DNA of 64,000 nucleotides from Vicinamibacterales bacterium (GCA_965222905.1 OZ244976.1:7376488-7440487), one strand, 5' to 3'; positions 5,377 to 23,855 are shown, counted from the stretch's first letter. Translations and numbers: made by a program. Notes: generated by a model from the letters alone, not told the origin.

Positions 5377-5456
5377 GAATTATGTGAAGTGCGACGTGTC
5401 CAGGACCGGCGAAAAAGCTCTCCTGATCTCTCCCGATCTCCTTTGTCCCATTGGAG

Positions 5457-5482
5457 CGCAACATAACGGGGAACTCAACATA
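5457..5482 (-). repeat. RIT element 1 right terminal repeat
   Basis: Reverse complement TATGTTGAGTTCCCCGTTATGTTGCG matches the RIT2 left end at 32538-32563 at 22/26 positions and lies exactly where istA is truncated. Confidence 0.75.
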
Positions 5483-5842
5483 GGACTCGCCGGGCAGGGT
5501 GACGACGCGGCGGTAGACGGTACGGTTGGTCTCGGGCCGCAGGCGCCGCGCGAGGCGGCGGACCTGGATGACCGAGCCCGGATAGCCGCGCTGGCGGACC
5601 ATCTCGTAGATCCGCGTGGCGCGCAGATTCGGATACTGCGCCAGGGTGTCCCGGATGAACGGCAGATACGGGTCGAGGATGCTGGGCCGACACAGGCTGG
5701 GGCGGACCCCTGCCGTCTCGCGCTCCACCGCGGCGCGCACCGTCTCATGGTGGAGGCCGAGTTGGGCCGCGATGGTCCCGACCTTCCAGTGCTCGCCGTA
5801 GAACAGGCGCCGGATCTCGGCGCGCTGCGCGGGCGTGATCAT
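5483..5842 (-). pseudogene. istA: IS21-family transposase IstA, 5' fragment truncated by the RIT end
   Basis: [14 protein letters not shown]...[35 protein letters not shown]...TLPGE, then an abrupt switch to the RIT terminal repeat. Confidence 0.85.
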
Positions 5843-6218
5843 CGTCCCTCCTTCTCCGGTCGACGCGGGGCTCCCGCATCGGGATGAGCCACCGGCTCGT
5901 CCGCCCGCAGACCACGCAGCGCGTGGCAACGGGCGGCTGAACCGGGGCGACGTCAGGGACGGCGAGTCTGGTCGATCGCTGTGCTGCGGTGGAAGACTGA
6001 TCCATCACGCGGCGGCGGTACGCACGCTGCCGGTCGCGATGGTCGAGACGGCCCTCGGGACTCTGCTGATGGCGGGCCCTGGCAGCCCGCAACGACCGGC
6101 GACGACCGGCAGCGCGGCAGCGCGGCGTGCAGTAGGCATGCCCGCGGTCACACGCGGCGCAGATGGCGAACAGGCGGTTGCAGTGTCGGCAGGTCTTCTG
6201 GCGGAGCGGCTGGTCCAC
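5745..6218 (-). CDS. Cys-rich small protein upstream of istA (IS21 accessory-type, putative Zn-binding)
   Basis: CRHC..F.IC..CDRG..YC...C N-terminus, an Arg-rich middle and CVVCG near the C-terminus. The 3' end overlaps the istA start, so the stop position is uncertain. Confidence 0.6.
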
Positions 6219-7693
6219 GGCGTCGGAGCGCGCAGGGCGAGCTCCGACTGGACAGCGAGCACGAACCGTGGCACAACGGCACCGACCGGCTCGGTCTGTC
6301 GGAGCTCGGGGCGGTCACGAGGGTCCGGTGGCACCCGGGCCCTCACCCCACGTCTGAGTCCGTTCCAACGGTATCCGAACGCCCCGGCGCTTGCGAGCAC
6401 GGGCGTCGCGGTGGCTCCGTCCGCTCAGGCACGGGCGCCGACGACGATCCGTCCAGCCGTCGCCGGCCGTCTCACAGCCCCTCGCGTAGTCACGTGCAGC
6501 CTCTTCCGCTGCCGGTCCCGCGCTCGGCTACCGCACTCCGCAAACGTCCGCGGACGGACGTTCGCTCCGCTTGGTCTCTGCTTCTTCAGAAAGCGATTTG
6601 AACCGACCCGCGTTCAAATTCCTTCAGGAATTCGTGAGCGCTGACAAGGTTCGAAATCGAACGTCTGCAGCGCGTGGCGCAGCGGTTCCTCCGTGTGCCG
6701 GGCGAGCCTCGCGGCGGCCGCCCGCAGCCGCTCGCGGGTGGCGGTGTCCGCTCTCTTCAGGACGTCCCGGAAACGCGGGCATCATGGTCGCTGCCTTCCT
6801 TGTAGCGGATCACGGCCAGATAGAAGAGCAGCAGCGGATCGCGGCGGGGCTTCCCAACGCCGCGCCGCCGTCGTTCGATCTCGACCCGAACCTCATTCCC
6901 CCCGCCGCAGTCCATCAGGATATCGAGGACGCCCGGCAGGCGTTCCCCGTCCACGCGTGCGAGGAGCGCGGGCCACCAGCGGGCAAAGCTCACCGCGCCC
7001 CGTGAGGCATGAGGCCGCCCCTGTTCTGCATCGCCCACAGCCGGTCCGCGCCTTGGGACGCCATGCCGAATGACGGCGTCATCGTCAGCGACAGCCCGCG
7101 CACCCGCCAAGCCCGGATCGAACCGCACCGAGCCGGTGAAGCCCCACTCCTCGTAGCGGCTGTCCTGTTGCGCCACCAGCAGGCTGAGCACGGCGGTCGA
7201 TCCGCTCCCCGAGCGCGTCAACCACCCCGCTTCCGGCTAAAGCTGTCGAACGCGGTGGGGGCTCGCATTCTCAACGCGTCAAGGCCACCAAGCATCGCGC
7301 CATCCTGACCACTCGGCCTCCTCGGCCACCCAGTTCCGGCGACTCGAACGGCAGCCGTGTGCCAAGCGTGCCAAGCACGGAATCGCTCCAGCCGGAGCAG
7401 CGGCACAGCCGCTTGTCGTCGAGCGGCTTGTCATGCTCGCTGGGCAAACCCCAGCACACGCCGCCGAGCGTCCCGCGTTTTGTCGACGGTTCTCCACCGC
7501 GAGGCCGCACAGGCGGACCCGGTACTCTCGCGCGTCGCCGTGACGCCGCACATGGTGGGCTGGTCGCTCCCGTTCGGGACGTGGGGAGTCGTCGTAAGTC
7601 GCTATCGCCCGGCATTGGAGTACGAGATCGAGCAGAACACTCTACTCGGCGAGCCTTTCTCGGGCACGGACCACCGGATGATACGATCGGCTC

Positions 7694-8647
7694 ATGGAAA
7701 GTAGGGACAGAGAGTCGCTCGTTGCGCAACTCCAGCGCGAAGTCGTCAATTCGAGTGTTCCGATCTCGGACATCTTGAGGAAGGCGAAGGTGCTGGCCAG
7801 CCTGTTGCAAAACGGAGAGTTCAAGGATTGGGTGGACGCTGAACTCCGAGGCTACCGTACCGCCAGTGAGCGTCCAGAGTATCGCAAGTTAAAACCGATT
7901 AATTTCGGGACGTTCGCTGGCCCCTTCGGGAAGATGGCGAAGAACGTTCAGATTCCCGTTGCCCTGCTGCCGGACGACCTCCGGGAGTACGCGGAGCACT
8001 TGGAAATCTCACACTCAGTCAAGGAAATAGAGTCGTTGGCGGATCAGGCGGCCAAGGACGGCGCGATCCGTTTAGCGTGGTTACCTGAAGCGGTACTCCT
8101 GGCCCGCAGACACGTCTCGATGGACGATGGATGCGAGTTGGTGGAAGCAAGCAGGCCATTGGTTAGGAGTCAGTTGGACGGCATTCTCGACCAAGTGCGT
8201 AATCGCCTTCTGGATTTCCTGCTCGAGTTGCAGCAGTTTAGCCCTGACGTGATGACCTCCGAGGATGCAATTCGCAACGTTCCTGGCGAGACGGTCACGC
8301 ACCTCTACCAGACCATTATCCACGGCGGGCAAAACATCGTTGCAACAGGTACGGGATTCAAGCAAAAGGCCACACAGCACGTCGCTGTAGGTGACTGGAC
8401 ATCTTTACGAGCCTATTTGAGGAGCATCGGAGTCGATCTCAGCTCGCTCGAAGAATTGGAGAGCGCGGTCAGGCAAGACGGCGACCGACGGGAGAAGCGG
8501 TTCGGTGAACAAGTGAAGTCTTGGATAGGAAAGATGGTTGGGAAGGCGATGGACGGAACATGGAAGATCGCCTTGAGCACAGCACCCGGGCTCCTGAAGG
8601 AGGCGCTGTTTCGGTACTACGGATGGGACTCCGACGGACCAGTGTAA
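7694..8647 (+). CDS. AbiTii-domain protein (putative abortive-infection/defence)
   Basis: SLVAQLQREVVNSSVPISDILRKAKVLASLL..EF..WVDAELRGY...PEYR pattern typical of AbiTii. AT-richer than its flanks. Confidence 0.8.
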   Translation: MESRDRESLVAQLQREVVNSSVPISDILRKAKVLASLLQNGEFKDWVDAELRGYRTASERPEYRKLKPINFGTFAGPFGKMAKNVQIPVALLPDDLREYAEHLEISHSVKEIESLADQAAKDGAIRLAWLPEAVLLARRHVSMDDGCELVEASRPLVRSQLDGILDQVRNRLLDFLLELQQFSPDVMTSEDAIRNVPGETVTHLYQTIIHGGQNIVATGTGFKQKATQHVAVGDWTSLRAYLRSIGVDLSSLEELESAVRQDGDRREKRFGEQVKSWIGKMVGKAMDGTWKIALSTAPGLLKEALFRYYGWDSDGPV

Positions 8648-8769
8648 GAGCGGATGTGCGTGGGTTGACGCGTCCCGCCGCCATTGTGAGGGCATTCGGC
8701 GCTGCGGCGACCTCCGTGCTGGCGTCTCGGTGTTCGTCCGAGTCCCATGGCCGTCGTAGCCGGGACGAT

Positions 8770-9131
8770 CGGGAACGATGTCTACGGTAGCGACGAGTCT
8801 TGGGCCCGGGGCAGTCTCTGGAGACACATGGCCCAATCGTCCACCAGACGCCGCCGCCGCTCGAACAGGTCCGACCGCGCGTAGGCAGCCTCCACCTTGT
8901 TCTGGATCACGTGGGCGAGCGCGGCTCGATGACTTCGCGCGGATGGTCCGTTTCCTCGGCGGCCCAATCCGGAACGACGACCGGAAGCCGTGCGGCACGG
9001 CGGAGAGCTCGTGGTGCTGGAGCATCTGCGGGAACGTCGACGTGGCTATCGACCTCCCGCTCCGCATCGGGAACACGAGCCGGTTGCCGTCGCCGAGCGT
9101 CCGCGCCGCATCGAGGATCTCCAGCGCCCGG
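8770..9131 (-). pseudogene. P4-like phage integrase C-terminal remnant (frameshifted)
   Basis: RALEILDAAR..., VPHGFRSSFR, ALAHVIQNKVEAAYARSDLFERRRRLVDDW spread across shifted frames. Confidence 0.8.
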
Positions 9132-10587
9132 GGGATTGTCCCGTTCGTTGTTGAACTTCGGGTGACGGACTCCCGGTCTCCTCTACGTAGTCATCTATAT
9201 TACGCCACGTCAGCAACCATGCCGTCGGGCGGAGCCAGCGCGTCCAGGGCAACGACCAGGTGCTGCAGATCACGGTAGCCCCGGACCCGCCGGAAGCGCT
9301 TCTCCGCCTCCACCAGCGCGCTCGCCACCCAGCGTTGAATCATCTGACCACCGCGCCAGCGCTTGACGTTGCGCGAGTAGTGCTCGACGCTGCCGTTGAG
9401 GTTCTCGATGATGTTCGTCGTCCGCAGGGTACGCTGCAGCGCACCCGTCAGACCGAGGCGCTGCACGGTCAGCGTCTCGTCGAGTCCTTCCCGGATGGAG
9501 GCCGCTGCCCCGGGGTGCTCGCGCTCGAGCGACTTGGCCAGCCGCTCGAGCACCCGCGCCGCACGGTCCGCCGAATCGAGGTCCCACGCATCCCGCAACG
9601 CCTTGCCGACAGAGGCGTGCAGCCGCTCGGGCAGATGGCCGATGACGTTCCTCCACTTATGGACTTGGCAGCGTTGCACCACGCCGCGAGAACCGAAGAC
9701 GTCGGTGATGGCCCGGCGCAGCCCCGCAGCGCCATCGATGACGAACAGCAACGTCCGGTCCGTCGGCAGTCCGCGCGCCACCAGGTCGCTCAACAGGCCG
9801 GTGGTGACAGCAGCGGTCTCGGTGGCGCCTTCGCGCAGCCCCAGCACGTGTTTCCGGCCCTGGGTGTCGATCCCCAGCGCGATCACCATGCAGTGGTCCC
9901 GGAAGACCTTGCCGTCGATGCAGACCACCCGCAGGTCCAGTTCCCCCAACGGCCGGCCGAGAAACGCCTGGAGGCGCTTGGTCGACAGCGCCACGAACCG
10001 CCGCGACACGGCGCTGCTCGATGTCGCCCGCTCGGTCACGTCGGCCGGCACCGGGTCCAGCGTGCCCGCATACCGGCGTGTCGACACCCCGGCGGCGACC
10101 GCGGCCAGCGTATGCTCGTCCAGCGGGTCGGTGGCCGCCGCCCATTGGAAGCTCGCCAGCGGGACTTCGCCCTCGGCGCTCCGCACCCGCTGCCGTGGCA
10201 GCTCGACCTGCCGTCCGCCGAGCGTCACCTGGCTGTCGACACTCCCGCCGCGCCACGCGGGCCGCTCAACCTGATGGCGCCCCTTCGGGCCACACAGCAT
10301 TTCCCGGTCCGCCTCCATCATCGCCTCCAGGACCTGCAGACCGGTCGCAATGCACAAGCCATGGAATGCTTCCCGGACACCGTTGACCACGCCGAGGACC
10401 GGCAGCGGCACCTGGATCGTGACGGGGCGCGAGCTGGGGGGTTGGCCGGACGTCTTCCGCCTGTCATGCTTCGCCATGGGTGGCAGTCTCCTTTTTTGAT
10501 TGCATCCCCTGTCCTACCACAGGACAGGGGCAGGAGCTGCCACCCGCTTCATCTCAGTTCAAGTTCAACAGCGTTCGGGACATCCCC
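9132..10587 (-). mobile_element. IS256-family insertion sequence
   Basis: Imperfect TIRs GGGATTGTCCCGTTCGTTGTTGAACTT and AAGTTCAACAGCGTTCGGGACATCCCC. GCGCCCGG is duplicated at 9124-9131 and 10588-10595. Confidence 0.9.
9200..10477 (-). CDS. IS256-family transposase
   Basis: AGVSTRRY, VCIDG, LFVIDGAAGL, QRCQVHKWRN and LRTTNIIENLN motifs. Confidence 0.92.
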   Translation of the reverse strand: MAKHDRRKTSGQPPSSRPVTIQVPLPVLGVVNGVREAFHGLCIATGLQVLEAMMEADREMLCGPKGRHQVERPAWRGGSVDSQVTLGGRQVELPRQRVRSAEGEVPLASFQWAAATDPLDEHTLAAVAAGVSTRRYAGTLDPVPADVTERATSSSAVSRRFVALSTKRLQAFLGRPLGELDLRVVCIDGKVFRDHCMVIALGIDTQGRKHVLGLREGATETAAVTTGLLSDLVARGLPTDRTLLFVIDGAAGLRRAITDVFGSRGVVQRCQVHKWRNVIGHLPERLHASVGKALRDAWDLDSADRAARVLERLAKSLEREHPGAAASIREGLDETLTVQRLGLTGALQRTLRTTNIIENLNGSVEHYSRNVKRWRGGQMIQRWVASALVEAEKRFRRVRGYRDLQHLVVALDALAPPDGMVADVA

Positions 10588-10619
10588 GCGCCCGGCCGCA
10601 GAGGTGGTGTGTCCCAGAA

Positions 10620-11744
10620 GGGTGCGGCTCTTCTTCGTCGGCGGCCGAATCAGTCTCTGCGGCAGCGAGGCAGGAGGCAATTGGATCCGTCACGGCGTGG
10701 TGAGGGAGCAGCGGAGGGGACCGGTGGCCGATGGTACTTGTGCGGTCAGCGACGGCTGGGGGTGTTCCGCTGGTACTCGCGCGCTTGGTGGAGGGTCTCA
10801 GTACGCATCAATGCGCCGGCGGCCCGTGGCGGCTTGAGGACCGTCGCAACTGCAGCCAAGTGTCACCGTGCGCCGGTCGACTACCATCCGGTCGCGGGCC
10901 AAATGCCGACAGGCCTTCAATGAGCTGGGCGACGAGCACCGCACGCCGCATCGCCGCTGCCACGTGGATAATGTCGAGTACCACTGTGGCTTCCAGGGCG
11001 TACGCGGTGGTGCCCGCGAAGCGGTCGCGATGGTCACGCGGCGGCGCATATCGACCAAGGAGCGCTCCGGCAGCAGGTTCAGCGCGGCATCGAGCGGATG
11101 CAGGCCGTCGTGACCGCGCCGCGCGCAGCCCAGACCCACAACCGGCATCGTGCCGGAGGTCGTTTCGGCGTGGCTATCCTGCTCGCGCCGCGCCGAGCAC
11201 TCGACACCACTGGCGTCCTCGGCCGGACCGGCAGCCTGTCCCGGGCTGCGTTGGTCGTGATGTCCTTGCAGGAGCTTGCGTACCAACTTCTGGCCCCGCC
11301 GGTGCAGTTCCCGTTCGAGTTCGCTCTCGCTCATCTGCCGGGCTTCGTTGGAGGAGAGGAAGGCTTTGGCATCCGCGAAGACAGCATCGGCCGCTGCGCA
11401 CGGGGCCGGGCTCGGGAGATCGATGCGAGGGACGCCGGTTCGCGCCTCTGGCACGTCGAATCTACGTCCCTGGAATCCTGTCGTCACAGCCATCACAGGT
11501 CTGTCCCCCCCCTGCCCATGGAACCGTACCAGAACGCCGCGCGAATGTCCAGAAGGGAGCGCGCCCGAGGGGGACAGACCGACGGTATTCGGTACCGTTT
11601 CGAGGCTCGGCTGGCCGCCGGAAAGACGCGGGTACGTGCTGGCTTGGTTGCTGTCCCCCCGAACTGAGCACTGGAGAGACGCATCCGCGGGCAAAAAGGC
11701 CCATGAATAGGGCGAAAACTTCTCTACGAAGAAGAGCCGCACCC
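10620..11744 (-). mobile_element. Non-autonomous, internally deleted ISKra4-like element, copy 1 (1125 bp)
   Basis: Perfect 19-bp TIR GGGTGCGGCTCTTCTTCGT. 9-bp TSD GTCCCAGAA at 10611-10619 and 11745-11753. Transposase relics include SESELERELHRRGQKLVRKLLQGH, LHPLDAALNL and VVLDIIHV. Confidence 0.85.
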
Positions 11745-11865
11745 GTCCCAGAAATGGCTTCACATCACCAGCCTGTAGCCGACGAGACTGCGAAACCCGC
11801 GGTTTCCGGGACGATTCTGGGCCGCGGCGTTGGAAGCACCGTGAAAGTCGAACTGTAAACTCTTT

Positions 11866-12876
11866 CTAGCCGCTCGACCGGGCCGACGCGCGAGAGAGCG
11901 CGTAGCCACACTTCTGGCAACTTACCAGCCCCTGCACGAGGCTCGGTTCGATCGTGCGCCGCCGGGCGTGCACCTTGTTCTCGTGCAGCAGTTCCTGTGC
12001 GCGCGCGAAAGTCGACTCGTCCACGATCGCCGGCACCGGGATCTCGATCCATTCCTCGCGCGGCCGTTCGTGGTTCGCACTGTCGCGACTGGCGGCGCCG
12101 CCGCGCAGCCGTAGTGGGCGCGTCAAGCGCTGCCGTTGGGCTCGTTGCGTCTTGCCGAAACACGCCGTGCCGCGATAGGCCGGGTTGCGCAGCATCGCCC
12201 ATACGGTGGAGCGTTCCCAACGGGTGCCGACCTTCCGCGTGGGCACGCCTTGCTCGTTGAGCCAGCGGGTGATCGCCGCGATACTCCAGCCCGTGACGGT
12301 GTAGTGCTCGTAGACGTCGCGGACAACGCGCGCTTCGGCGTCGATGACGACGTACGCCGCGGGGTTGTCCTCACGCTTGCGAATGTAGCGATAACCATAG
12401 GGAGCGCCGCCCAGGACACTGATCTCACCGGCTCGCGCGCGGTGCCGCTTGCCACGACGCGACCGTTCGAGGATCTGAGCGCGTTCGTACTCGGCGATCA
12501 TGCCCTGAAACTGCACCAGCAGCTGATCCTCGGCCGTGGCGCTCGACGGAGCATTGAGGAAGCGGGCTTCGACCCCCTGGCGGGCGAACTCTTCGATCAA
12601 CAGCACCTGGTAGGCGTACTTCCGACTCAGCCGATCCGGACTGTGCACGAGCACCACCTGGATGTCGCCGGCGGCTGCGAGGTCGCGCACCTGTTCCAAT
12701 CCCGGCCGTTCGAGAGTCGCCCCGCTATAGCCTTCGTCTTCGAAGATCCATTGCTGGGGCGCCTCCAGATCGAGCGTCGCGGCCCAATCGACCAGCGCCG
12801 CCGTCTGGCTCGCGATCGTGTGCGCTTCGCGCTGCTGGTTCGAGGACACGCGCGTGTAAATCGCCGCCATCTGCAT
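11866..12876 (-). pseudogene. Large serine recombinase LSR2, truncated just after the first CxxC of the Zn ribbon
   Basis: AAIYTRVSS catalytic motif, EDEGYSGATLERPGL, DRLSR, recombinase domain GAPYGY and LRNPAYRG. Ends GLVSCQKCG...SSG*. Confidence 0.9.
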
Positions 12877-13027
12877 GTGGACGCTCCATTCCATAAGCTG
12901 CAACCGGACGCATACGGGCCGGCACCAACAACGTGTACGCCTGGGCGATCTTGCTGTCGCGAAGTCGATCGAACGTGCAATCGAGCTGCACCTGCCGGGG
13001 AGCACTTCGTGGTTGTCGTTCACCCAC
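12725..13027 (-). CDS. Small hypothetical accessory protein overlapping the LSR2 start
   Basis: Translationally coupled between the HTH gene and LSR2. RQVQLDCTFDRLRDSKIAQAYTLLVP motif. Confidence 0.5.
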   Translation of the reverse strand: MGERQPRSAPRQVQLDCTFDRLRDSKIAQAYTLLVPARMRPVAAYGMERPHADGGDLHARVLEPAARSAHDREPDGGAGRLGRDARSGGAPAMDLRRRRL

Positions 13028-13352
13028 GTCGCTGACGGAAGGTGTCCAGGAACGCCGTCACCGCCTGGGTGACGACTTGTCCGAGGGAGAGTCCGCTCTC
13101 GCGGGCATAGGCGCGGATTGCGCGTACGGTGCTGACCGGCAGCTTGAAGGTGATCGCGACGGTCGGCTCGACCGCCGGCAGCGGAGCGCTCAGCCCGGCT
13201 GCTTCCTGGAGATAGCGGTAGGCTTGCCGGCGGGACAATGCAAACTCGCGACCGAGATGGCGGGCCGCCTCGGCGCGTTCCATCTGCTGCCCGAGCAGCC
13301 GGTACGCGGCGTTGAGCAAGCGCGCCTTGTCGGCCTTGGTGGCCCGCGCCAT
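13020..13352 (-). CDS. Small DNA-binding protein (HTH plus ribbon-helix-helix-like)
   Basis: AARHLGREFALSRRQAYRYLQEA helix-turn-helix, followed by ITFKLPVSTVRAIRAYARESGLSLGQVV. Confidence 0.7.
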   Translation of the reverse strand: MARATKADKARLLNAAYRLLGQQMERAEAARHLGREFALSRRQAYRYLQEAAGLSAPLPAVEPTVAITFKLPVSTVRAIRAYARESGLSLGQVVTQAVTAFLDTFRQRRG

Positions 13353-13461
13353 GAGTCATACACATATTACCTCTTGAGACGCAAGTCAAGTACCGGTCGG
13401 TCTCGCCAGCCGGTGATCACCCGATCGAACTGAAAGTTGCCTTTTGCGTTCGGGGAGTAGC

Positions 13462-13812
13462 GACGCCCCCTTGGGGCGTTCCCATCGTGCGCGGCACCAG
13501 GGTTCCGTCTTCCTGCTGCATGGGAGCGGTCAGCCACCGCTGCACATAGAGCAGAATCCACCGGCACCGGGTGTACTTCCTGACCGCACGCATGACGAGC
13601 GCGTGGTCCAGGTTGTCAAAGAAGCCGCGGATATCCAGATCGATCACCCAGTCATAACGCCAGCATCGCTGCCGGGCTGTCGTGAGTGCGTCGATCGCGG
13701 ACTTCCGCGGGCGATACCCATACGAATCGGGATGGAACTGCGGCTCCACGTCCGGTTCCAGGTACATCTTGACCACCGTCTGGGCAATTCTGTCAGCGAC
13801 AGTGGGGACGCC
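13462..13812 (-). pseudogene. Class D group II intron RT, middle fragment (RT2-RT4)
   Basis: GVPTVADRIAQTVVK...DSYGYRPRKSA...RCWRYDWVIDLDIRGFFDN...RWLTAP...GTPQGGV, RmInt1-like. Confidence 0.9.
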
Positions 13813-13864
13813 GGCTTCATAATGCACCTCCTGCAGCACGGCTTCGGGATTCTCGTGCGACCGT

Positions 13865-16552
13865 TCAAATTCTCGAGGAGTTTCGGACCCAGGCGCGCAA
13901 TGTCTCCTTTTTGTCGTCGTCGAAGGCGATCCAGTACGGCGAGCCGTGGTTAGGACAGTGCCCTAAACTAGTTTGCCACATGCCAGTTTCCTGGTCATAC
14001 TGGAGGTATGAAGCGAGATATCGAGCTGGAAGCGACCCTGGTTGCGAAGTATGCCGTGGTCGCGCCGGTGTTGGACGAGCGCAGTCGCCGCCGGTGGGCG
14101 GCGGCCGAGTCGCTCGCTGTCGGCTACGGCGGCGACGCGGTGGTTTCGTCGGCCACCGGTCTGGCTCGGGAGACGATTCGCAAGGGACGCCGGGAGATTG
14201 CCCCCGACGAGGCGCCCACCGACCGCATCCGACGCCCTGGAGGCGGACGGCTCCGCATCCAGCAGGATCAACCCGGCATCCAGGCCGCGCTCGAAGCGCT
14301 GGTGGACCCGCTCACGCGCGGCGACCCGACCTCGCCGCTACGCTGGACGTGCAAGAGTCGCGCGAAGCTGGCGGGGGCGCTCGTCGACCGCATCGGGAAC
14401 GTCCGGACGGCGACCGGGCTCCGGGTCCTGGCCGAACTCGACGCCGGGCAGTATCCTACGGGCGTCACGGTGACCAAGGAACAGATGGACGCACTCGCGC
14501 TGGTTCCCGATGCGTTTCACGGGGAATGGAATTACAAACTGTTACCCCGATGAAGTTGACAACTTTATATCGATCACTGTCCTAGGTCGTCGAGCCGTGA
14601 CTACGCCGCGGTCGATCCAGTAGTAGACCACATTGCGGCTGACGCCGAGTTCGTCGGCGACCTGACGGACGCTGCGCTCGCCGGGGCGCTTGAAGTCGGG
14701 AGCCGGAATCCGGTGCTTGTGGCGGATCCAACGGACCATCGAGACGTTGAATGCCCCGCCTTTGGCGCTCCGGCGACCCTCCCGGTTCAGCGCTGCTGCG
14801 ACCTGCTCGTCGGAGCGCTCGCGAGCCAGCTCGCGCACCCGGTCGACGACCTCGTCGGGATACCGGAGGCGATCGGCAATGTTGGCGGGCAGCGTAACCT
14901 CGAGGTCTTCGCAGGCCCCACCCTGCCACCGGACATGCAAGATGGCGGTCTTGCGTTCGCCGAACCGCTCGACGGTGATGTCCTTGATCACGAGCCGGAG
15001 GATGCGCTTCTTGTCCTTCGCCTTGGTCGTGGGCGCGTTCCACAGGCGGGGGAAGTCGTGGGCGAGCGCCGCCACCCGGGCGCGCTGCTCCGGCGTGACC
15101 ACGAGCGCTTCCTTGCTCTGAAAGTCAGCAAACTGCGTCCTGACCTCTTCGAGCCGCACCAGGGCGTCGTTCCAGCGCTGCTCGAGCGTCGCGGCCACGA
15201 GGCGATTCGACGGATCGACCTCCTCGTAGCGGCGCTGGGCCAACTGCGCTTCGTACTCGGCTCGTTCCAGGCGCATGCGCCATTGGCCGGACATCGCCTT
15301 GTCCCGGTGTTTCGAGCTGCCGTAGCGCTTCCTCGGCGACCTCGAGCTCGGCAGGTTCGAGCACCGCCAGCATCCGCTCCGAGACCGCGGTGTCCAGCAG
15401 GTCGCAACGCAGGCTCATGCAGCTGGTGGTCGCCACTCCTTCGCGCCGCCGCGCGTTGCATTCGTAGGTCGGGTAGATGCCGCCGTTGCCCTTGTAGCGG
15501 ACGGTCAGTCGGCGACCGCAGCGCCCGCACAGCAGCAGGCCTTGGAGCAGTGCGAGTCCTTCCCGCGCGGCGCCGCTCAAGAGCATGTGCTCGGCATTGG
15601 TACGGTTGTTCTCGAGCAGCTGCTGGTTCCGCTCGTACTCCGGCCAGGAGACGTAGCCGTCGTGGTGATTCTGGATCCGCACGAGCCAGGCGTCCAGCGG
15701 GACGCAGCGCGTGCGCATGCGGACGTCGCCTTCGGGGGAAACCTCCTTCGTGCTCTGGTGACGCCCGAAGACATACGCCCCGGCATACGTGGGGTTCTTG
15801 AGAATGTCGAGCACGCGGTTGTGGTTCAGCCGACCCCAGATGAGTCTGCCGTCCCACGCCCCGCCGTAGGCGCGCTTCGGGAACCGCAGTTGCTGTCGGC
15901 CGAAGTGGTGCACGACCGCGTAGGCGCTGCCCGTCTGGCGGAAGACCTCGAAGACCAGCCGGACAGCGCCCTGGACCTCCTGGTCCGGATCGAGCACGAT
16001 GCGCCCCTCGTCGGCGTAGCACAGGCCGATCGGCAACGGGAAGCGGAGCTCACCCTTCTGGGCCTTGTGGAGCTTGCCGCCCTGGAGGCGCGCGCGAATG
16101 ACGTGCAGCTCGGCCTGGGCGATGGTGGCCTTGAGGCCCAACAGCAGCGCGTCGTTGAAGTCCGCCGGGTCGTAGCAGCCGTCCTCGTCGATGACCAGCG
16201 TCCGGGTCAGCGCGCAGATCTCGATCAACCGATGCCATTCCAGGTTCGAGCGGGCCAACCGTGAGGCTTCCAGGGCGAAGATCGCGCCGACGCGGCCCAG
16301 CGACACATCGGCGACCAGCGTCTTGAAGTCCTCGCGGTTGGTCGTCTGCGCCCCCGACTGCCCGAGGTCCTGGTCGAGGATCCGGATTCGCTCCGGCGCC
16401 CACATCATCTCGACGGCCCGGTTCCGCAGGTCGTACTGCCGCTCGGTACTCTCCTGGTGATGGCGCACCTGCCCCATCGTCGACTGCCGGATATAGATGT
16501 AGGCCGGCTTCTGCAGGTGGTGGCTCTGTACTTTCGACATCGTCAGCACCAC
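13865..16552 (-). pseudogene. Large serine recombinase LSR1 with C-terminal HTH extension; frameshift near 15310 and mini-IS insertion at 13953-14582
   Basis: AYIYIRQST catalytic motif, DQDLGQSG, LEASRLAR, LLCGRCGRRL Zn ribbon. Removing the mini-IS joins ...TARRP to NHGSPYWI...NSSRI*. Confidence 0.88.
13953..14582 (+). mobile_element. Internally deleted ISAzo13-family element (630 bp)
   Basis: TIR GGACAGTG/CACTGTCC with a TA duplication. ORF 14008-14553 fuses the ISAzo13 N-terminus (LDERSRRRWAAAES, RGDPTSPLRWTCKS) in frame to the C-terminus (YPTGVTV, FHGEWNY). Confidence 0.85.
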
Positions 16553-16703
16553 CCTCGATCAGTTCCTGACGGGTGTGGGACGGAAGCGCGTGCCCGCTCG
16601 TCGCAGCGGCCGCGCGCTCGGAAGCGATCCAGCACTGCAGCATGTTCGCGGTCAACAGGCCGGCGGTCTGGACATCGACGGGCACGGCGGCCGCCATCTG
16701 CAT

Positions 16704-17048
16704 TCAGTCGATCGGCTCCCGACGTCGCAGCAGCTCGAGGTTGATCGCGGCGATCTCGTCGAGGAGCTGTCGCGTCCGGCGGTAGTTGGCGACGAACTGC
16801 TCGACCTGGCTGCGATGCTCCTGCGGCACGTAGACCATGACCGGTCGCGCCTTCGGCATGCTGACCGACAGGTAGACCTTCGGACCGTGGCCGATACCGC
16901 GCGCGCACTTGCACCCTGGTCGTCCGCAGCGCTTGAAGCGTTCGATGAGCGAGCCGCGCAGGATGGCCTTCAGGGACGGGAGCTGCCGCAGCAGCATTGT
17001 CCGGCGCCTCCGTAACGTACTCGCCAAGCGTGTTTTCAGACCAGTCAT
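16704..17048 (-). CDS. DUF6788-like small protein (CGRPGCKC motif)
   Basis: LRGSLIERFKRCGRPGCKCARGIGHGP.VYLSVS pattern, located upstream of LSR1. Confidence 0.75.
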   Translation of the reverse strand: MTGLKTRLASTLRRRRTMLLRQLPSLKAILRGSLIERFKRCGRPGCKCARGIGHGPKVYLSVSMPKARPVMVYVPQEHRSQVEQFVANYRRTRQLLDEIAAINLELLRRREPID

Positions 17049-17078
17049 ACAACTGGTCTGATACTACACCTCTCGACC

Positions 17079-17385
17079 TCATTTGGGAAGCCCTCGGTCG
17101 TCGGCCTGCTCCAAGGCCGCCAACAGCTCGGTCAGCGCGATGAGCTTCACGAAATCGAGGACATGAGCGCCGCTCGCAAGATCCGCCGCCGCGGCCGGAA
17201 CCTCTCGATCCGTCCACTCGCGGGGCACGCAGAACGTACCTCCGGAGGTGCCCTGCAGAATGAGCGTGTCGATGCCGGAGACGCGGCGCGTCTTCAGGAT
17301 CGGAAACCGCCGACCCCGGAGTGGATGAAACGGGTGGGTGATCTCAGTCCACCCCGACGGCTCGTTGGGGCGATGTGCAGTTCGC
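17079..17385 (-). CDS. DUF5372-like small protein; start uncertain at the element boundary
   Basis: ITHPFHPLRGRRF...VPREWTD motif. No clear start codon inside the element. Confidence 0.6.
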
Positions 17386-17388
17386 GAT

Positions 17389-18191
17389 GACCGTGGGAAT
17401 GCCCAAGCGTCGCTCACTTCCGTCCTTCTTCGGTATCCCAACCGACCGGACCGGAGGCGGGAAGTACGTGCCCGACGACATCCGATTCCAAATCTTATAG
17501 AGATTGTTCTTCAGGTCCTGCTCGAACATCTCGACAGACTCAGCATCGACGCCAGCTGCTCCGTGGTTCGCCTTGACCCGAGTGTAGGCCTCCCAAACCA
17601 CCCACTTGGAAATATTGAACGGCTTCGCGTGGCTCGACGGCTCCTCCCGCGCGCGCGGTTGACCGTCGGGACACGCTGGATGACGCGACCCCTTTGCTCC
17701 ATCGAGTTTCCCCGACTTCATCGCTCGTACGGGTCGCTCCGCCCCTGTGCCTCGCATCGGGCTTCTCATCCTTGGGGGTCGGCCCCTTGGATTTCTCCCT
17801 TCACATCGAGGCGACAGGTTCCCACGTTCCACACAAGGGCCTGGTGCAGGGTCACGCCACCTTTATGCCGGGTGCCGCCCAGCCAAGCTGCAGGCTCCCG
17901 CTGGACTTGTCCCGGGTTAACGACTCGCCCCGGTTTCGACACCGTCCCTACGCTTTCGACACGTTGCCGGTGGTTCATACACTTCGTCTCCCTGCACCCT
18001 ACCTGACGCGGTCAAGCCGCGCCGTTTCCGTGACGCTTACCACCTCGGCTCTTGACCGAGGCAGCGCACGACGGTTTGAAGCCTCCCCCTGCCGGGCGGC
18101 TCCGAGGGGCCTACCCTCATCCCTCATGCAGCATGGCTGCAGCTAGTCTAGGTGGCCATCTCGGCCTCCTTTCCGCGCCTTCGTGGCGCAC
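17389..18191 (-). mobile_element. Class D group II intron, 5' part (ribozyme 5' domains plus RT N-terminus); 3' end not found
   Basis: Starts with GTGCG at 18191. RT reads KPFNISKWVVWEAYTRVKANHGAAGVD...NLYKIWNRMSSGTYFPPPV...RRLGIPTV. EBS1/EBS2 match the 5' exon. Confidence 0.88.
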
Positions 18192-20597
18192 AATCATCGG
18201 CGTAGCGCACGATGATTGCGTCGCCTGTGACCTCGTGGCTGCGCCATTTCTTCTGGAACCATAGGTCGAGGACGTAGTGCAGGTAGATGTTCGCCAGGAC
18301 TGGTGAAACCACCGAGCCTTGGGGAGTTCCCCGCAGATTGTCCCGCCACTCGCCAGCTTCCATGACGCCGGCGTTCAACCACTTGATGATGAGCCTGATG
18401 ACCCGCTTGTCCCCGATACGGTGCTCGAGGAACCGGACCATCCAGTCCCGCGAGACGTTATCGAAGAATGCGCGGATGTCGCAGTCCGCCACCCAGTTGA
18501 TCTTCCGCCGTGTCAGTCCGACCGCGAGCGCGTCGAGCGCGTCATGCGCCCCGCGCCCGCGCCGGAATCCGTAGCTGAACCCCAGGAACTCCGCCTCGTA
18601 TATCGGCGTCAGGATGGTCTCCGTCACCGCCTTCTGGACTATCTTGTCTTCGATGGCCGCGACGCCGAGCGGTCGTGTGCCGCCATCCGGCTTCGGAATG
18701 TTCACCCGCCGTGATGGCGTCGCCCGGTACGCTCCCGAGTGCACGCGGTCGTGCAGGTCGGCCAGCCGGCCTTCCAGCCCTTCCTCGTACATCCGCCACG
18801 TCATGCCGTCCGCGCCGGCCGCTGCATCCCTCTTCAGCTCGAAGAACGCTTGGCGCAACGCATCGACCGTGACATGGTGGAGAAGCGCCGTCAGACGCTC
18901 CTGTGGCTCCCGGCGTACGAATTGCCGTATCCGGTCGGCCGCCTGTGACGCGCTTTCCCGGCGCTGCGTCCGGCGCGCGCTTTGGCTTTCCGGATTCCCC
19001 TTGGGCTCGGTCCTGGGCTCCATTGGCTCCGCAGGGACCGGAGTCCCCTTGTTCGCCAACTTCACAGCTACTACGACCGAGTCTGATTTGGGTGCGGCTC
19101 TTCTTCGTAGAGGAGTTTTCGCCCTATTCATGGGCCTTTTTGCCCGCGGATGCGTCTCTCCAGTGCTCATTTCGGGGGGACAGCAACCAAGCCAGCGCGT
19201 ACCCGCGTCTTTCCGGCGGCCAGCCGAGCCTCGAAACGGTACCGAATACCGTCGGTCTGTCCCCCTCGGGCGCGCTCCCTTCTGGACATTCGCGCGGCGT
19301 TCTGGTACGGTTCCATGGGCAGGGGGACAGACCTGTGATGGCTGTGACGACAGGATTCCAGGGACGTAGATTCGACGTGCCAGAGGCGCGAACCGGCGTC
19401 CCTCGCATCGATCTCCCGAGCCCGGCCCCGTGCGCAGCGGCCGATGCTGTCTTCGCGGATGCCAAAGCCTTCCTCTCCTCCAACGAAGCCCGGCAGATGA
19501 GCGAGAGCGAACTCGAACGGGAACTGCACCGGCGGGGCCAGAAGTTGGTACGCAAGCTCCTGCAAGGACATCACGACCAACGCAGCCCGGGACAGGCTGC
19601 CGGTCCGGCCGAGGACGCCAGTGGTGTCGAGTGCTCGGCGCGGCGCGAGCAGGATAGCCACGCCGAAACGACCTCCGGCACGATGCCGGTTGTGGGTCTG
19701 GGCTGCGCGCGGCGCGGTCACGACGGCCTGCATCCGCTCGATGCCGCGCTGAACCTGCTGCCGGAGCGCTCCTTGGTCGATATGCGCCGCCGCGTGACCA
19801 TCGCGACCGCTTCGCGGGCACCACCGCGTACGCCCTGGAAGCCACAGTGGTACTCGACATTATCCACGTGGCAGCGGCGATGCGGCGTGCGGTGCTCGTC
19901 GCCCAGCTCATTGAAGGCCTGTCGGCATTTGGCCCGCGACCGGATGGTAGTCGACCGGCGCACGGTGACACTTGGCTGCAGTTGCGACGGTCCTCAAGCC
20001 GCCACGGGCCGCCGGCGCATTGATGCGTACTGAGACCCTCCACCAAGCGCGCGAGTACCAGCGGAACACCCCCAGCCGTCGCTGACCGCACAAGTACCAT
20101 CGGCCACCGGTCCCCTCCGCTGCTCCCTCACCACGCCGTGACGGATCCAATTGCCTCCTGCCTCGCTGCCGCAGAGACTGATTCGGCCGCCGACGAAGAA
20201 GAGCCGCACCCGTCTGATTTCTCCATGCCGTTCATCTTTGGTTACGGATTCCTCCTTTCCTCAGCGACCCCGCCCACGACAGCGGGATGGCATGGAGACC
20301 TCCCAGGTCCCGGTTCAGCGCGTACGTGCGTGCCTGGGTTCTTCGACACCGCGGGATTCCGGCCCCCCTCGCCATATCGGTGGGACGGATGCTGCCTTCG
20401 GTTTCCGGCGAAGACCTCGGCATCCCGGACGGAAATTTCTTTCGGTGCTCAATAGCCCTGCCCGCACGCGCCCCTGTCAACGCTTGACCCCCGCCCTCGC
20501 GGACGGTGGCCCATGACTCGGGGTGGAAGTGGTGGCTCACCTTCTCCTTCCTGCCGGACTCTCACCGGCTACGCTGACACCAGTTAGCCTGGCGCAC
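18192..20597 (-). mobile_element. Class E-like group II intron, 5' part; RT truncated right after YADD
   Basis: GTGCG at 20597. EBS1 CGCCGG (20405-20410) pairs with IBS1 CCGGCG. RT reads RLTALLHHV...YIPK-like NIPKPDG.TRPLG..EDKIVQ, GTPQGSVVSP, RYADD. Class assignment is by motif resemblance. Confidence 0.85.
19090..20211 (+). mobile_element. Non-autonomous ISKra4-like element, copy 2 (1122 bp), inside the class E intron RNA
   Basis: Same 19-bp TIR as copy 1. 9-bp TSD GTCTGATTT at 19081-19089 and 20212-20220. Near-identical to 10620-11744 in inverted orientation. Confidence 0.88.
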
Positions 20598-20683: not shown

Positions 20684-21864
20684 TAGTGTCCTGCCCGATA
20701 AATGCATTTATATAACAGGCTGACTGTGTCACCCTCTTCTGGCGGGAGGGATGCGATGGCACGTCCGATCTTGGTACTGGAGGTGACCCCCGAGGAGAAA
20801 CGGGAGCTGGAACGTCGGGTCGCAGCCTCGACGACGCCCGCGCGTGACTGCCTCCGGGCACACATCGTTCTGCTGCGGAGCGAGGGAGTCGGGCAGCAAG
20901 AGGTGGCCTCGCGCTTGGGAGTGAGCGCCCCGAGCGTGAGCAAGTGGTCGCAACGCTTCGACCGAGAAGGGCTCGACGGCCTCAAGGACAAGCCGGGCCG
21001 CGGGGCCAAGCCGTCGATTCCACTGGCCACGGTCCGGCGGGTGGTCGAGGAAGCGGGCAAGGCGCCGCCGGGCCGGCAACGCTGGAGCACCCGCTCGCTG
21101 GCTCAGGAGGTCGGCATCTCGGCGCACAGCGTGGCGCGCATCTGGCAGAGCCAGGGGCTGAAGCCGCATCGCCTGCGCACCTTCAAGGTTTCCCGCGACA
21201 AGAAGTTCGAAGAGAAGTTCTGGGATGTGGTGGGTCTGTATCTGGACCCACCCGAGCGGTCGCTGGTGTTGTGCTGCGACGAGAAGACACAATGCCAAGC
21301 CCTGGAGCGCACGCAGCCGGGCCTGCCGTTGGGCCACGGTCATATCCGGACGCGGACACACGATTACATCCGGCACGGCACGGTCACGTTGTTCGCCGCT
21401 CTGAGCTACCTGGAGGGCAAGCTGATCTACCGCACCGAACAGCAGCACACGCACGTGGAGTGGCTGCGTTTCCTCAAGCAGATCGACCGCGAGACCCCCG
21501 AAGACGTGGACCTGCACCTGATCGCCGACAACTATTGCACGCACAAGCACGAGAAGGTGGTGAGCTGGTTGCAGAAGCACCCGCGATTCCACATGCACTT
21601 CATTCCGACCTCGAGCTCTTGGATGAACATGGTGGAACGATTCTTCGCAGACCTGACGCAGGACTGCGTACGCGCGGGGAGCTTCACGAGCGTGGCGGAG
21701 CTGGTCGAAGCGATCACGACCTATCTTGCCAGTCGGAACGAGAATCCGAAACCCTACACGTGGAAGGCGGACGGTGCGAAGACTCTGGCCAAGATCCAGA
21801 GGTCTCGGGAGGCTCTTGAGACGGCCTCTCAGGTTATGTAAACCCAATTGTCGGGCAGGCACTA
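20684..21864 (+). mobile_element. IS630-family insertion sequence
   Basis: TIRs TAGTGTCCTGCCCGATAAAT and AATTGTCGGGCAGGCACTA. CTAG target with TA duplication. Confidence 0.88.
20756..21841 (+). CDS. IS630-family transposase
   Basis: HTH N-terminus, CCDEKTQCQALER, THDYIRHGT, HLIADNYCTHK and PTSSSWMNMVERFF motifs. Confidence 0.93.
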   Translation: MARPILVLEVTPEEKRELERRVAASTTPARDCLRAHIVLLRSEGVGQQEVASRLGVSAPSVSKWSQRFDREGLDGLKDKPGRGAKPSIPLATVRRVVEEAGKAPPGRQRWSTRSLAQEVGISAHSVARIWQSQGLKPHRLRTFKVSRDKKFEEKFWDVVGLYLDPPERSLVLCCDEKTQCQALERTQPGLPLGHGHIRTRTHDYIRHGTVTLFAALSYLEGKLIYRTEQQHTHVEWLRFLKQIDRETPEDVDLHLIADNYCTHKHEKVVSWLQKHPRFHMHFIPTSSSWMNMVERFFADLTQDCVRAGSFTSVAELVEAITTYLASRNENPKPYTWKADGAKTLAKIQRSREALETASQVM

Positions 21865-21993: not shown

Positions 21994-23855
21994 GTCTTCA
22001 TTTAGCGGTCGTGGCGAGAAATCAGCAGGATTGGGGTGCAGGATTGGGGTACGAGTACCGATAAGAGGGACATGGTTCTGGTGAACGGCGAGCGCGGCGG
22101 TCCGAACGGGTCTGAGCGTGAGCCGGATCCTCGGGACGCGCGCATCGAGTACCTCGAACACGAGAACGCGAAGCTGATCGAGGAGCGGGATCACTGGAAG
22201 CATCACAGCGAGCACCTGGAGAAGCAACTCGACGCTGCCCGGCGGGCCGGCAAGCGACAGGCGTCCCCCTTCGCCAAGGACCGGCCGCAAGGACGCGGCG
22301 GGCGTCCGGGCCGGCGGGCCGGCGCCGATTACGGCACGCATGGCCGCCGGCGGCGGCCGACACGGGTTGACGAGACGCATGCGGCGCCGGTTCCGACGGC
22401 GTGTCCGGACTGCGGCGGCGCGGTCGAGGTGACCGGCGAGGCGTCGCAGTATCAGGAGGACGTGCCGCAGGTCGAACCGATCGTGCGGCACTTCAAGATT
22501 GAGGTTGGCCACTGCTCGCAGTGTCGGCGTCGGGTACAGGGCCGCCACCGGTTGCAGACCTCCGATGCGCTGGGCGCGGCCGTCGCGCAGCTCGGCCCGA
22601 ACGTGGCGGCCCTGGTGGCCGAGCTGCACACCGGGATGGGGCTGCCGCTGGCGAAGGTCAGCGAGCATCTGAAGACGAAGTTCGGCCTGGATGTGACGCC
22701 GGGCGGCCTGGTGCACCTGCTGCACCGCACGGCCCGCGCGGCGGCGCCGGCGTATGCGGCGCTTTGCGAGCAGGTCCGGCACAGTCCGGTGGTGACGCCG
22801 GATGAAACCGGCTGGCGTGTGAACGCGCTCCGCCACTGGCTGTGGGCGTTCGCCACGCCGGAGACGACCGTCTACGCGATCTGCGACGGTCGCGGGTTCG
22901 CCGACGCCGCCGCGGTGCTCGGCCCCGACTTCGCCGGCGTGCTGGTGCGCGACGGGTGGGTGGCGTATCGCGGCTTCAAGCACGCGCCGCACCAGAGCTG
23001 TCTGTCTCACCTGCTGCGCCGATGCAAGGAACTGCAGGAGAATCATCCGTACAGTCCCTGGGCCGGCGAGGTGCAGGCGGTCCTGCAGGATGGCCTCGCC
23101 CTGCGGGACCGCTGCAACGCCGGCGACATCAGCGAACACGGTCTGGCGTCGGCCCGCGGCCGACTGGCCGCCCGGCTCGGCCGGCTGATCGACGCGCCGC
23201 CGCCGCTGGCCGACGCCGAGCGCTTCGCCAAGCACCTGGCCAACGAATTTCCGGCCGTGTTCCTCTTCTTGTGCGACCCGTCGATCGACGCCACCAACTG
23301 GCGCGCCGAGCAGGCCATCCGACCCGCCGTGGTCACTCGCAAGGTCTGCGGCGGCAACCGCACCCGCAAGGGTGCCGACACCCAGCAGGTGCTGGCCAGT
23401 GTCCTGCGCACCGCCCGCCAACGCCACCTCGACCTGCCCGACCTGATCGCCACGATGCTGTGCGCCCCGGAGCCGGTCGTCCCCGACGCACTCGCACTGC
23501 CGCCGCCCTGCTGAGGCGGATCACCCCAACCGACCGTCCCTGGCTCCTGCCGCCTTCCGGCTGGCTCACCGCCGGGACAGGCCCGTGCACGAAGCGACCG
23601 CCAGCCCCCGTCCCTGCCATGTCCGCCAAACCGCGGTCTCGCGCGCCGAGCTGGCGCACCCGTCGTACTCTCCGGCCAGACCGGTACCGACGCACGCAAA
23701 ACCCGGCCGCCGACCCACCCACTTGCGGCATACTGGAGGTGTGATATTCGAGGCGGCCGGCGCCAGAAGGAACCTCGCCGCCGCTCGGTGGGCTTTGACC
23801 TGCCGGGCCTCATTTCAGCCCGTGTCTATTGACGAATGATGCGCTAATCGAAGAC
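21994..23855 (+). mobile_element. IS66-family single-ORF insertion sequence
   Basis: TIR GTCTTCATTTAGCG versus CGCTAATCGAAGAC. 8-bp TSD CTCCCCGT at 21986-21993 and 23856-23863. Confidence 0.88.
22036..23514 (+). CDS. IS66-family transposase (TnpC-like)
   Basis: Coiled coil, CPDCGG, PDETGWRV, LVRDGWVAY, QSCLSHLLR and TNWRAEQAIRPAV..RKVCGGNRT motifs. Confidence 0.92.
   Translation: MQDWGTSTDKRDMVLVNGERGGPNGSEREPDPRDARIEYLEHENAKLIEERDHWKHHSEHLEKQLDAARRAGKRQASPFAKDRPQGRGGRPGRRAGADYGTHGRRRRPTRVDETHAAPVPTACPDCGGAVEVTGEASQYQEDVPQVEPIVRHFKIEVGHCSQCRRRVQGRHRLQTSDALGAAVAQLGPNVAALVAELHTGMGLPLAKVSEHLKTKFGLDVTPGGLVHLLHRTARAAAPAYAALCEQVRHSPVVTPDETGWRVNALRHWLWAFATPETTVYAICDGRGFADAAAVLGPDFAGVLVRDGWVAYRGFKHAPHQSCLSHLLRRCKELQENHPYSPWAGEVQAVLQDGLALRDRCNAGDISEHGLASARGRLAARLGRLIDAPPPLADAERFAKHLANEFPAVFLFLCDPSIDATNWRAEQAIRPAVVTRKVCGGNRTRKGADTQQVLASVLRTARQRHLDLPDLIATMLCAPEPVVPDALALPPPC

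Follow-up and report, generated by a model that had tools for sequence, protein, structure and literature searches.

Why should several unrelated mobile elements, stacked one inside the other, each interrupt a reverse transcriptase (RT) gene at the codons of a conserved RT motif? The question is raised by a 64,000-nucleotide stretch of the genome of a Vicinamibacterales bacterium (GCA_965222905.1 OZ244976.1:7376488-7440487; the whole stretch is referred to here as the window). Between positions 11866 and 20597 an outer group II intron carries an inner group II intron at the Y-A-D-D motif of its RT, and the inner intron in turn carries, in its own RT gene, two elements that each encode a large serine recombinase (LSR), LSR1 at the G-I-P-T motif and LSR2 at the P-Q-G-G motif. 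We conclude with high confidence that the region is a real, partly decayed stack, namely what is left, on the 5′ side, of selfish elements nested four levels deep. An earlier note on this DNA had proposed that conserved RT motifs are targets for elements using two chemistries, retrohoming and serine recombination, and a survey of breakpoints in other genomes bears this proposal out: RT fragments abut LSR1-family elements at G-I-P in 66 of 80 informative loci and LSR2-family elements just after P-Q-G-x-V in 65 of 68, while 11 of 11 introns of the inner type begin just past Y-A-D-D. Because the same three sites recur in other genomes, their use in the nest is not a matter of chance.

The anatomy drawn in the earlier note was recovered almost to the base, each listed element being found at its place and on its strand, which is the minus strand throughout save for the insertion sequence (IS) transposase remnants. 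The parts are listed below from the 5′ end of the nest, L010 being a locus from an independent Vicinamibacterales genome that is discussed further on.

20236–20597, minus strand: outer group II intron, 5′ ribozyme part, domains I to IVa (Rfam RF02005, group-II-D1D4-6)
20212–20235, minus strand: first 8 codons, MNGMEKSD, of the outer RT open reading frame (ORF), the last 9 nt being copy 1 of a target duplication (sequence)
19090–20211, plus strand: ISKra4-family deletion derivative, copy A, 1122 bp (inverted-repeat pair with 10620–11744; NCBIfam)
18192–19089, minus strand: outer RT ORF, motifs 0-5, ending in Y-A-D-D plus one T (Pfam RVT_1; tblastn)
17722–18191, minus strand: inner group II intron, 5′ ribozyme part (RF01999; alignment of nine copies)
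17396–17721, minus strand: inner RT ORF, N-terminal part up to G-I-P, with the crossover CC at 17397-17396 (sequence; unitigs 17380-17422)
13805–17397, minus strand: LSR1 element from attL to attR, 3593 bp including a 634-bp IS derivative (Pfam; junctions)
13951–14584, plus strand: ISAzo13-family internal-deletion derivative in the 3′ end of the LSR1 gene (Pfam DDE_Tnp_ISAZ013; NCBIfam)
13460–13804, minus strand: inner RT ORF, middle part, motifs 2-4, ending in P-Q-G-G-V, with the crossover GC at 13461-13460 (Pfam RVT_1)
11871–13461, minus strand: LSR2 element, truncated (Pfam Resolvase and Recombinase; 91% identical to the complete copy in L010)
9130–11870, no strand assigned: sequence in place of the rest of the nest, comprising ~150 nt of unmatched DNA, ISKra4 copy B and an IS256-family element (unitig 11715-11923)

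As can be seen, and as the earlier note had not remarked, the nest is incomplete: LSR2 stops at 11871 and the 3′ halves of both introns are missing. The Rfam model of domain V/VI, RF00029, gave no match anywhere in the window when the gathering score was applied and none within positions 1-30000 even at E ≤ 1, and tblastn searches of the window with five RTs and both LSRs returned no RT C-terminal halves and no further LSR pieces. The outer and inner RTs are ~36% identical to each other.

The LSR1 element measures 2.96 kb without its IS derivative and crosses over at the Pro codon of G-I-P-T. It comprises the body of a DUF5372 gene (17395-17079), a DUF6788 gene (17048-16704) and the LSR1 coding sequence (16540-14585 and 13950-13865), with at its right end a Shine-Dalgarno sequence, AGGAGGTG, at 13832-13825 and the DUF5372 ATG at 13820-13818. 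The recombinase of ~680 residues has Resolvase (PF00239), Recombinase (PF07508) and zinc ribbon (PF13408, Zn_ribbon_recom) domains followed by a C-terminal helix-turn-helix, and the catalytic-serine motif R-Q-S is invariant in the family alignment. The ISAzo13 derivative, with terminal repeats TAGGACAGTG and a transposase fragment scoring 157 bits, splits the recombinase gene near its end; it is absent from L010, and the empty-site joint 13950/14583 occurs in four runs. An apparent frameshift at 15310 consists of one extra A in an A-run (GAAACACC), which is found in no unitig of four public runs and may be a consensus error rather than a mutation.

Copies of the LSR1 element that are 90-98% identical are present in loci L008-L010 and L018, and LSR1 homologues number more than 7900 at E ≤ 1e-20. 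The best 120 of these are 62-92% identical, and most lie on contigs of ~3 kb, as expected for a repeat. The first long contexts, six places in one metagenome assembly and one in Marinobacterium aestuarii, all (7/7) showed the element within a group II RT gene, broken in each case at the same motif. The family was scanned using one genome per species, which gave 580 confirmed stretches. The best 80, drawn from Acidobacteriota, Pseudomonadota (Burkholderia, Ralstonia, Bradyrhizobium), Planctomycetota, Nitrospirota, Verrucomicrobiota and other groups, were examined, an informative locus being one with at least 150 nt of flank (n = 80). Besides the 66 loci in which an RT fragment abuts the element at G-I-P, one more has an RT fragment at another coordinate.

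Alignment of the junctions defines attB as ...GGC ATT-CC-C..., in which the CC that opens the Pro codon is the crossover, and attP as ATGAAGCCGGCGTS-NN-CACRGTCATCGCGAAC. When the flanks are joined at the dinucleotide, 25 distinct RT genes regain R-x-L-G-I-P-x-x-x-D-R-x-x-Q in frame, and because the rebuilt attB sites restore the RT frame, we take integration to proceed by conservative serine recombination, the first of the two chemistries. The same dinucleotide is present at both junctions in nearly all LSR1-family loci examined. In large serine recombinases the central dinucleotide sets polarity, and here a GG core goes with insertion antisense to the RT (24 loci) and a CC core with sense insertion (6 loci, the window among them). 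A crossover in the shared GCCGGC block was also considered and was rejected because it leaves RTs out of frame or non-canonical; the CC register fits all loci. As a separate observation, on the long contigs of European Nucleotide Archive assembly ERZ25072670 (L001, L002, L003, L005 and L006) the group II intron that hosts LSR1 splits Pkinase genes at several genomic places, which suggests either a multi-copy family of kinases or an intron lineage that homes to a conserved site in kinase-coding DNA.

A more distant relative was found in Sinorhizobium fredii NGR234, on pNGR234a (L168, NC_000914.2 30732-40322), where the y4bA-D element occupies ~3215-6560 of the locus inside a DDE transposase gene. 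This unit encodes a recombinase 42% identical to LSR1 together with a DUF5372 protein (Y4bD/Y4pK). Its flanks join as ...ICANTPQAKG|RVERANQTLQDRLVKELRL, placing the insertion in the PQAKG|RVER motif of the transposase, so that the conserved motif used by this LSR1 relative belongs to another kind of mobile-element enzyme.

The second recombinase family uses another motif of the same enzyme. In the window, the LSR2 element crosses over at the GC that forms the first two bases of the codon after P-Q-G-G-V, here an Ala codon (GTC-GC-GAG), as in three other loci. It retains its left att arm TACTCCCCGAACG (13459-13447), a 110-residue ORF (13352-13020) and residues 1-336 of the ~552 of LSR2 (12876-11871), which match PF00239 and PF07508; the R-V-S-S motif is invariant in the family alignment. 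A complete LSR2 element is ~2.2 kb long. Past PQGG the inner RT continues intact in L010, and reads show this continuation as a loose end.

LSR2 has at least 8000 homologues, and the 68 informative loci come from 80 metagenome loci. The family's attP is a near-perfect 13-nt inverted repeat, CGTTCGGGGAGTA-NN-TACTCCCCGAACG, and the rebuilt attB restores G-T-P-Q-G-G-V-x-S-P-L-L-A-N in ~30 of 44 loci, the crossover falling on bases 1 and 2 of codon x. The core is mostly AT or GC, both palindromic, so that LSR2 inserts either way (20 antisense versus 17 sense insertions) and generates inversions. Many of the remaining loci join two N-terminal RT halves (L093, L099, L110, L112) or two C-terminal ones (L097, L119, L133, L145), and L129 has the order outer N part, LSR2, inner C part, outer C part. 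Such mismatched halves are what would be expected if the recombinase inverted or deleted DNA between copies residing in different introns. Consistent with rearrangement of this kind, identity between the window and L010 steps from 74-78% to ~90% exactly at the outer-RT PQG site.

The inner intron represents the other chemistry. It begins with GTGCG at 18191, one base past the YADD codons, with the start sequence GTGCGCCACGA, and matches RF01999 at 18118-18001 with 108.1 bits (gathering score 36). Its RT starts at 17721, breaks off at G-I-P and resumes 3.6 kb downstream at 13804 as (V-P-)T-V-A-D-R-I-A-Q, the middle part matching RVT_1 with E 4e-15. A multi-copy intron RT of S. meliloti is 64% identical to it, and RmInt1, the class D archetype, comes from the same species (PMC5894124); the class D label that the earlier note gave to the inner intron is thus no more than a lead, and its class E label for the outer intron is likewise provisional. 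Domain V/VI of the inner type, missing from the window, is recognized by RF00029 in L010 (8113-8188, 55.5 bits) and in the S. meliloti relative (56.3 bits). All eleven copies with the 5′ end GTG(C/T)GCCACGA begin exactly one base after Y-A-D-D, in unrelated host RTs (the window, L010, L041, L050, L080, L098, L144, L151, L153, L162 and L170, the last being S. meliloti ml59 pSymA).

In the window, candidate exon-binding site 2 (EBS2), GCGTA, lies at 17953-17949 and candidate EBS1, AGTCGT, at 17925-17920. The nine-copy alignment shows the EBS1 loop AGUCGU pairing with exon GAYGAYU, which contains the intron-binding site IBS1; in L080 the exon ends in A and the loop reads UGUCGU, and in L050 the exon is GAUGAUG and the loop CGUCAU, both compensatory EBS1 changes. 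The GCGUA conserved in inner-type introns can pair with exon UAYGC. Since the EBS1 changes covary with IBS1, retrohoming in this lineage is RNA-guided, and the base pairing indicates that it is the YADD codons that the guide recognizes. In L105, a more distant relative with an RT that is 61% identical, the 5′ exon is unrelated.

Each recombinase family also possesses one gene that is complete only across attP. At the right end of the LSR1 element, the conserved AGGAGGTGCAtTATGAA constitutes the Shine-Dalgarno sequence, ATG and first codons of DUF5372, the gene body of which lies at the left end. Joining the ends yields an ORF of 107-121 residues (MKPPSGRS.RTA...HPFHPLRG...) in 27 of 32 distinct loci, and DUF5372 gene calls in databases have unrelated, flank-derived N-termini. 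In the other family it is the LSR2 ORF itself that has no stop within the element, and the rebuilt attP adds a conserved tail of ~31 residues (...SPxAKGNFQFERVxTGWR...VLDLRLKR) with the same stop in 49 of 53 loci. Because these genes are whole only across attP, the circle and the integrated copy encode different proteins in both families. The circle junctions would read ...GAAGCCGGCGTC-CC-CACGGTCATCGCGAAC... for LSR1 and ...CGTTCGGGGAGTA-GC-TACTCCCCGAACG... for LSR2, and the gene splits may bias the balance between integration and excision. DUF5372, DUF6788 and the 110-residue protein are candidates for a directionality factor. A DUF5372 model (predicted local distance difference test score, pLDDT, 75.5) shows a small SH3/KOW-like barrel with a C-terminal helix and weak fold matches. 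A sequence search of the PDB gave no match for DUF5372 and, for DUF6788 and the 110-residue protein, only unrelated proteins at E > 0.005; an exact-sequence look-up of the window's DUF6788 protein returned no record.

The order of events, like the activity of these copies, we infer as follows. With the outer group II intron already in place, the inner intron would have retrohomed into the Y-A-D-D DNA of the outer RT, its EBS2 pairing with TAYGC and its EBS1 with GAYGAYN. The 2.96-kb LSR1 element would next have integrated in the inner RT, at the CC of the G-I-P-T Pro codon and through conservative serine recombination, followed by the 2.2-kb LSR2 element at the GC that begins the codon after P-Q-G-G-V. 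The IS derivatives would have arrived afterward, without motif preference and leaving target duplications, and a later rearrangement beside the IS copies would have taken the 3′ end of LSR2 and the 3′ halves of both introns. In this scheme a conserved RT motif would provide a conserved, multi-copy DNA site, the loss of which is harmless to the cell, each motif-targeting lineage using the same site in many genomes. This "safe haven" rationale, put forward in the earlier note, is reasonable as a presumption.

On balance we favor the view that the two very abundant and apparently undescribed LSR families, 2.2 and 3.0 kb in size, live solely as hyperparasites on group II introns and read the DNA of invariant RT motifs; that, as the pNGR234a relative suggests, they belong to a wider clade residing in the catalytic motifs of mobile-element enzymes; and that their attP-spanning proteins would act as a built-in switch between circle and integrated copy. 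Five observations temper the account of the nest given further above. No RT is present at the element ends in 13 of the 80 informative LSR1-family loci, where either other targets are used or the end offsets failed. The right-hand LSR2 junction is missing from the window, and the GC crossover rests on one junction plus the empty site in L010. The inner-type copy L041 has a mismatch at IBS1 position -1. A contiguous attP, as in a circle or tandem copy, was found in none of the fetched loci, and the unitigs support each junction of the nest separately rather than the whole 9-kb arrangement on one molecule. Separately, L026, L047, L061, L064, L071, L075, L082 and L083 are long loci with LSR1-family elements (52-62% identical) and no RT at their ends, where other targets may be involved.

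Alternatively, the recombinase elements could integrate on their own and then spread mainly as passengers, riding in intron domain IV during retrohoming while intact copies provide the RT in trans. At least four different protein-kinase genes of one metagenome assembly indeed hold the same intron with the same LSR1 element (identical recombinase), and both families sit in the ORF within domain IV, a domain established in targetron work to tolerate cargo. Group II RTs, however, act mostly in cis, independent site-specific integration into each intron copy would look alike, and many loci hold rearranged RT halves as recombinase action predicts; we thus consider passenger spread unlikely. Somewhat less likely again is a reversible switch in which precise excision restores the RT ORF and the element controls the mobility of its host intron, like the LSR elements in sigK or in further genes that are restored by excision during development. 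The in-frame rebuilt attB sites would fit such a switch, as would the coexistence of empty and occupied forms of several sites in the same runs, but a multitude of independent intron copies and strains would produce the same mixture just as readily, the cell has no evident gain from it, and the copies at hand are decayed.

The earlier note had also raised the concern of an assembly chimera, in which repeats are mis-joined and no single molecule carries the nest. Matches to the window occur in sponge and sponge-metagenome runs (the source is probably sponge-associated), which are multi-strain samples with short unitigs. In these runs the components are high-copy, with word depths of hundreds to thousands, and several junctions show alternative flanks; moreover, two identical 1.1-kb inverted copies flank the region. 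Against this stands L010, which is ~90% identical to the window from the outer-RT PQG site through YADD, the inner intron and LSR1, and keeps the order outer RT, inner intron, LSR1. Both IS derivatives are absent from L010, leaving their empty sites visible, and its inner RT runs intact through PQGGVASPLLAN, followed by domain V/VI of both introns (that of the outer intron at 8756-8830, RF00029, 39 bits against a gathering score of 40) and by the C-terminus of the outer RT. Unitigs cross every window-specific junction checked: the LSR2 break (11715-11923, depth 70), the LSR2/inner RT joint (13440-13489, depths 108 and 178 in two runs), LSR1 attL (17380-17422, depths 100-120) and the YADD/inner intron joint (18166-18216, depth 516). 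Each ISKra4 copy is bordered by a matching target duplication of its own, which speaks against a recombinant join at either end. Taken with the orthologous nest, the junction-crossing unitigs argue against mis-joining, and a chimera is very unlikely.

The further suggestion that LSR1 and LSR2 travel together as one composite unit did not hold up. The two are on the same strand of one RT here, but they share a locus in just 5 of 167 cases (4 of 87 found via LSR1 and 1 of 80 found via LSR2), they are 25% identical, and their att sites differ. In L010 it is the outer RT that holds the complete LSR2, in antisense orientation at the corresponding PQGAV|V site, the inner RT being intact at PQGG, so that LSR1 and LSR2 occupy different RTs in opposite orientations. 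On the grounds of this arrangement and the rare co-occurrence, joint movement is rejected as highly improbable. Finally, a chance pile-up in an IS graveyard, with coincidental motif positions, can hardly be credited: the first 23 kb of the window are rich in transposases and recombinases and the IS derivatives of the nest show no motif preference, but the codon-level sites recur in the independent loci counted above, across many phyla, and in all eleven inner-type introns, and the rebuilt attB sites give an intact RT frame.

The outer intron and its interruptions complete the picture of the nest. The intron has its GTGCG 5′ end at 20597 and a full-length RF02005 match at 20562-20337(−) with 172.8 bits and E 1e-50 (gathering score 49). 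Its RT ORF starts at 20235, has Y-A-D-D at 18204-18193 and matches RVT_1 with E 7e-25; the orthologous ORF in L010 opens with MMHGMKKSD, and the maturase part missing in the window is present there. ISKra4 copy A (20211-19090) was inserted within codons 6-8 of the ORF, which it breaks after codon 8. Its ends are the terminal inverted repeats GGGTGCGGCTCTTCTTCGT, the 9-bp target duplication AAATCAGAC stands at 20220-20212 and 19089-19081, and its transposase fragment has a weak NCBIfam match (E 6e-7); empty-site unitigs occur in two public runs. Copy B (10620-11744) is inverted relative to copy A, is 99-100% identical to it and likewise has inverted repeats, with a 9-bp duplication of its own, GTCCCAGAA. 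Together with an IS256-family element (~9130-10587; transposase at 10477-9200(−), 213 bits, above cutoff; inverted repeats present), copy B adjoins the truncation of LSR2. The ~150 nt at the break (10588-10619 and 11745-11870) have no match elsewhere in the window or in the 170 fetched loci. Inversion between the two inverted ISKra4 copies was considered as the cause of the truncation and was rejected because both copies keep their own matching 9-bp duplications.

Around the nest, mobile DNA makes up most of the first 23 kb of the window. Judged by eye from their translations, the ORFs at 20702-21841(+), which starts ~100 nt from the 5′ exon of the outer intron on the opposite strand, at 173-2020(−) and at 22036-23514(+) are transposase-like, and 5210-5929(−) and 8405-9076(−), also judged by eye, look like pieces of a transposase and an integrase. 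A run of three adjacent tyrosine recombinase genes, of 372, 383 and 394 residues, occupies 2253-5376(+), a layout resembling a recombinase-in-trio element. Further along, a 300-nt direct repeat (37365-37664 and 41812-42111, 81% identity) is spaced 4.4 kb apart, and low-GC stretches (~55%) lie at 29-31 kb and 35-37 kb.

If the two families are indeed hyperparasites of group II introns, these introns carry specialized parasites of their own, acting by two unrelated mechanisms that converge on DNA kept constant by RT function. This would explain many "fragmented" intron RT genes in genomes and metagenomes, as well as nearby contig breaks, and points to an intron-inactivating force, the palindromic cores additionally inverting DNA between intron copies. 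The families offer natural serine recombinases with a short, well-defined and highly conserved attB and a readable orientation rule. The two natural genes that are rebuilt only on excision may serve as models for directionality control, and the conserved end sequences could help annotation pipelines to delimit LSR elements.

Compared with known systems, the chemistry and logic are of known kinds, and the target class, minimal architecture, abundance and split genes appear new. Like the Bxb1 and phiC31 integrases, TnpX of Tn4451 and SpoIVCA of the sigK skin element, these recombinases combine Resolvase, Recombinase and zinc-ribbon domains with a catalytic serine motif, and like known large serine recombinases they use inverted half-sites around a 2-nt core for conservative integration into a conserved coding site. 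Unlike known LSR elements, they span only 2.2-3.0 kb, carry one or two small proteins as cargo, are very abundant and have as attB a conserved motif of another selfish element's enzyme. The mycobacteriophage integration-dependent immunity system, which Broussard and colleagues are said to have described in 2013, reportedly has attP in a gene, integration changing the protein made. Our elements share with it an attP inside a coding sequence and different products in either state, but here the split gene is that for DUF5372, which loses its start, or that of the recombinase itself, which loses its conserved C-terminal tail.

A full-text literature search found no account of DUF5372, DUF6788 or y4bA-D, nor of recombinase elements residing within intron RT genes, and the main text of the LSR catalogue of Durrant et al. 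2022 does not mention reverse transcriptase as a target (PMC10083194). Tyrosine-integrase clades in helper-embedded satellites are reported to target prophage late genes repeatedly (PMC10111431). Those satellites likewise represent an integrase lineage specialized on a conserved gene of another mobile element, but they exploit a helper phage, whereas the elements described here use serine recombinases and have no evident dependence on the intron. For the introns themselves, close precedents are twintrons and the nested introns of Methanosarcina acetivorans, where group II introns home site-specifically into group II introns, a "perpetual homing site" that leaves host genes unaffected (Dai and Zimmerly 2003, in the summary of PMC4424553). 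The present locus shares with these nests intron-in-intron homing and a multi-level arrangement; unlike in the nests as summarized in PMC4424553, the homing site here is YADD-coding sequence, used across bacterial phyla including on S. meliloti pSymA. RmInt1 and RmInt2 of S. meliloti (IIB3/class D), which lack an endonuclease domain and have ISRm2011-2 and ISRm17 as natural targets (PMC5894124), similarly use a mobile element as target, but whereas theirs is an IS, the inner intron targets the codons of another intron's RT active site.

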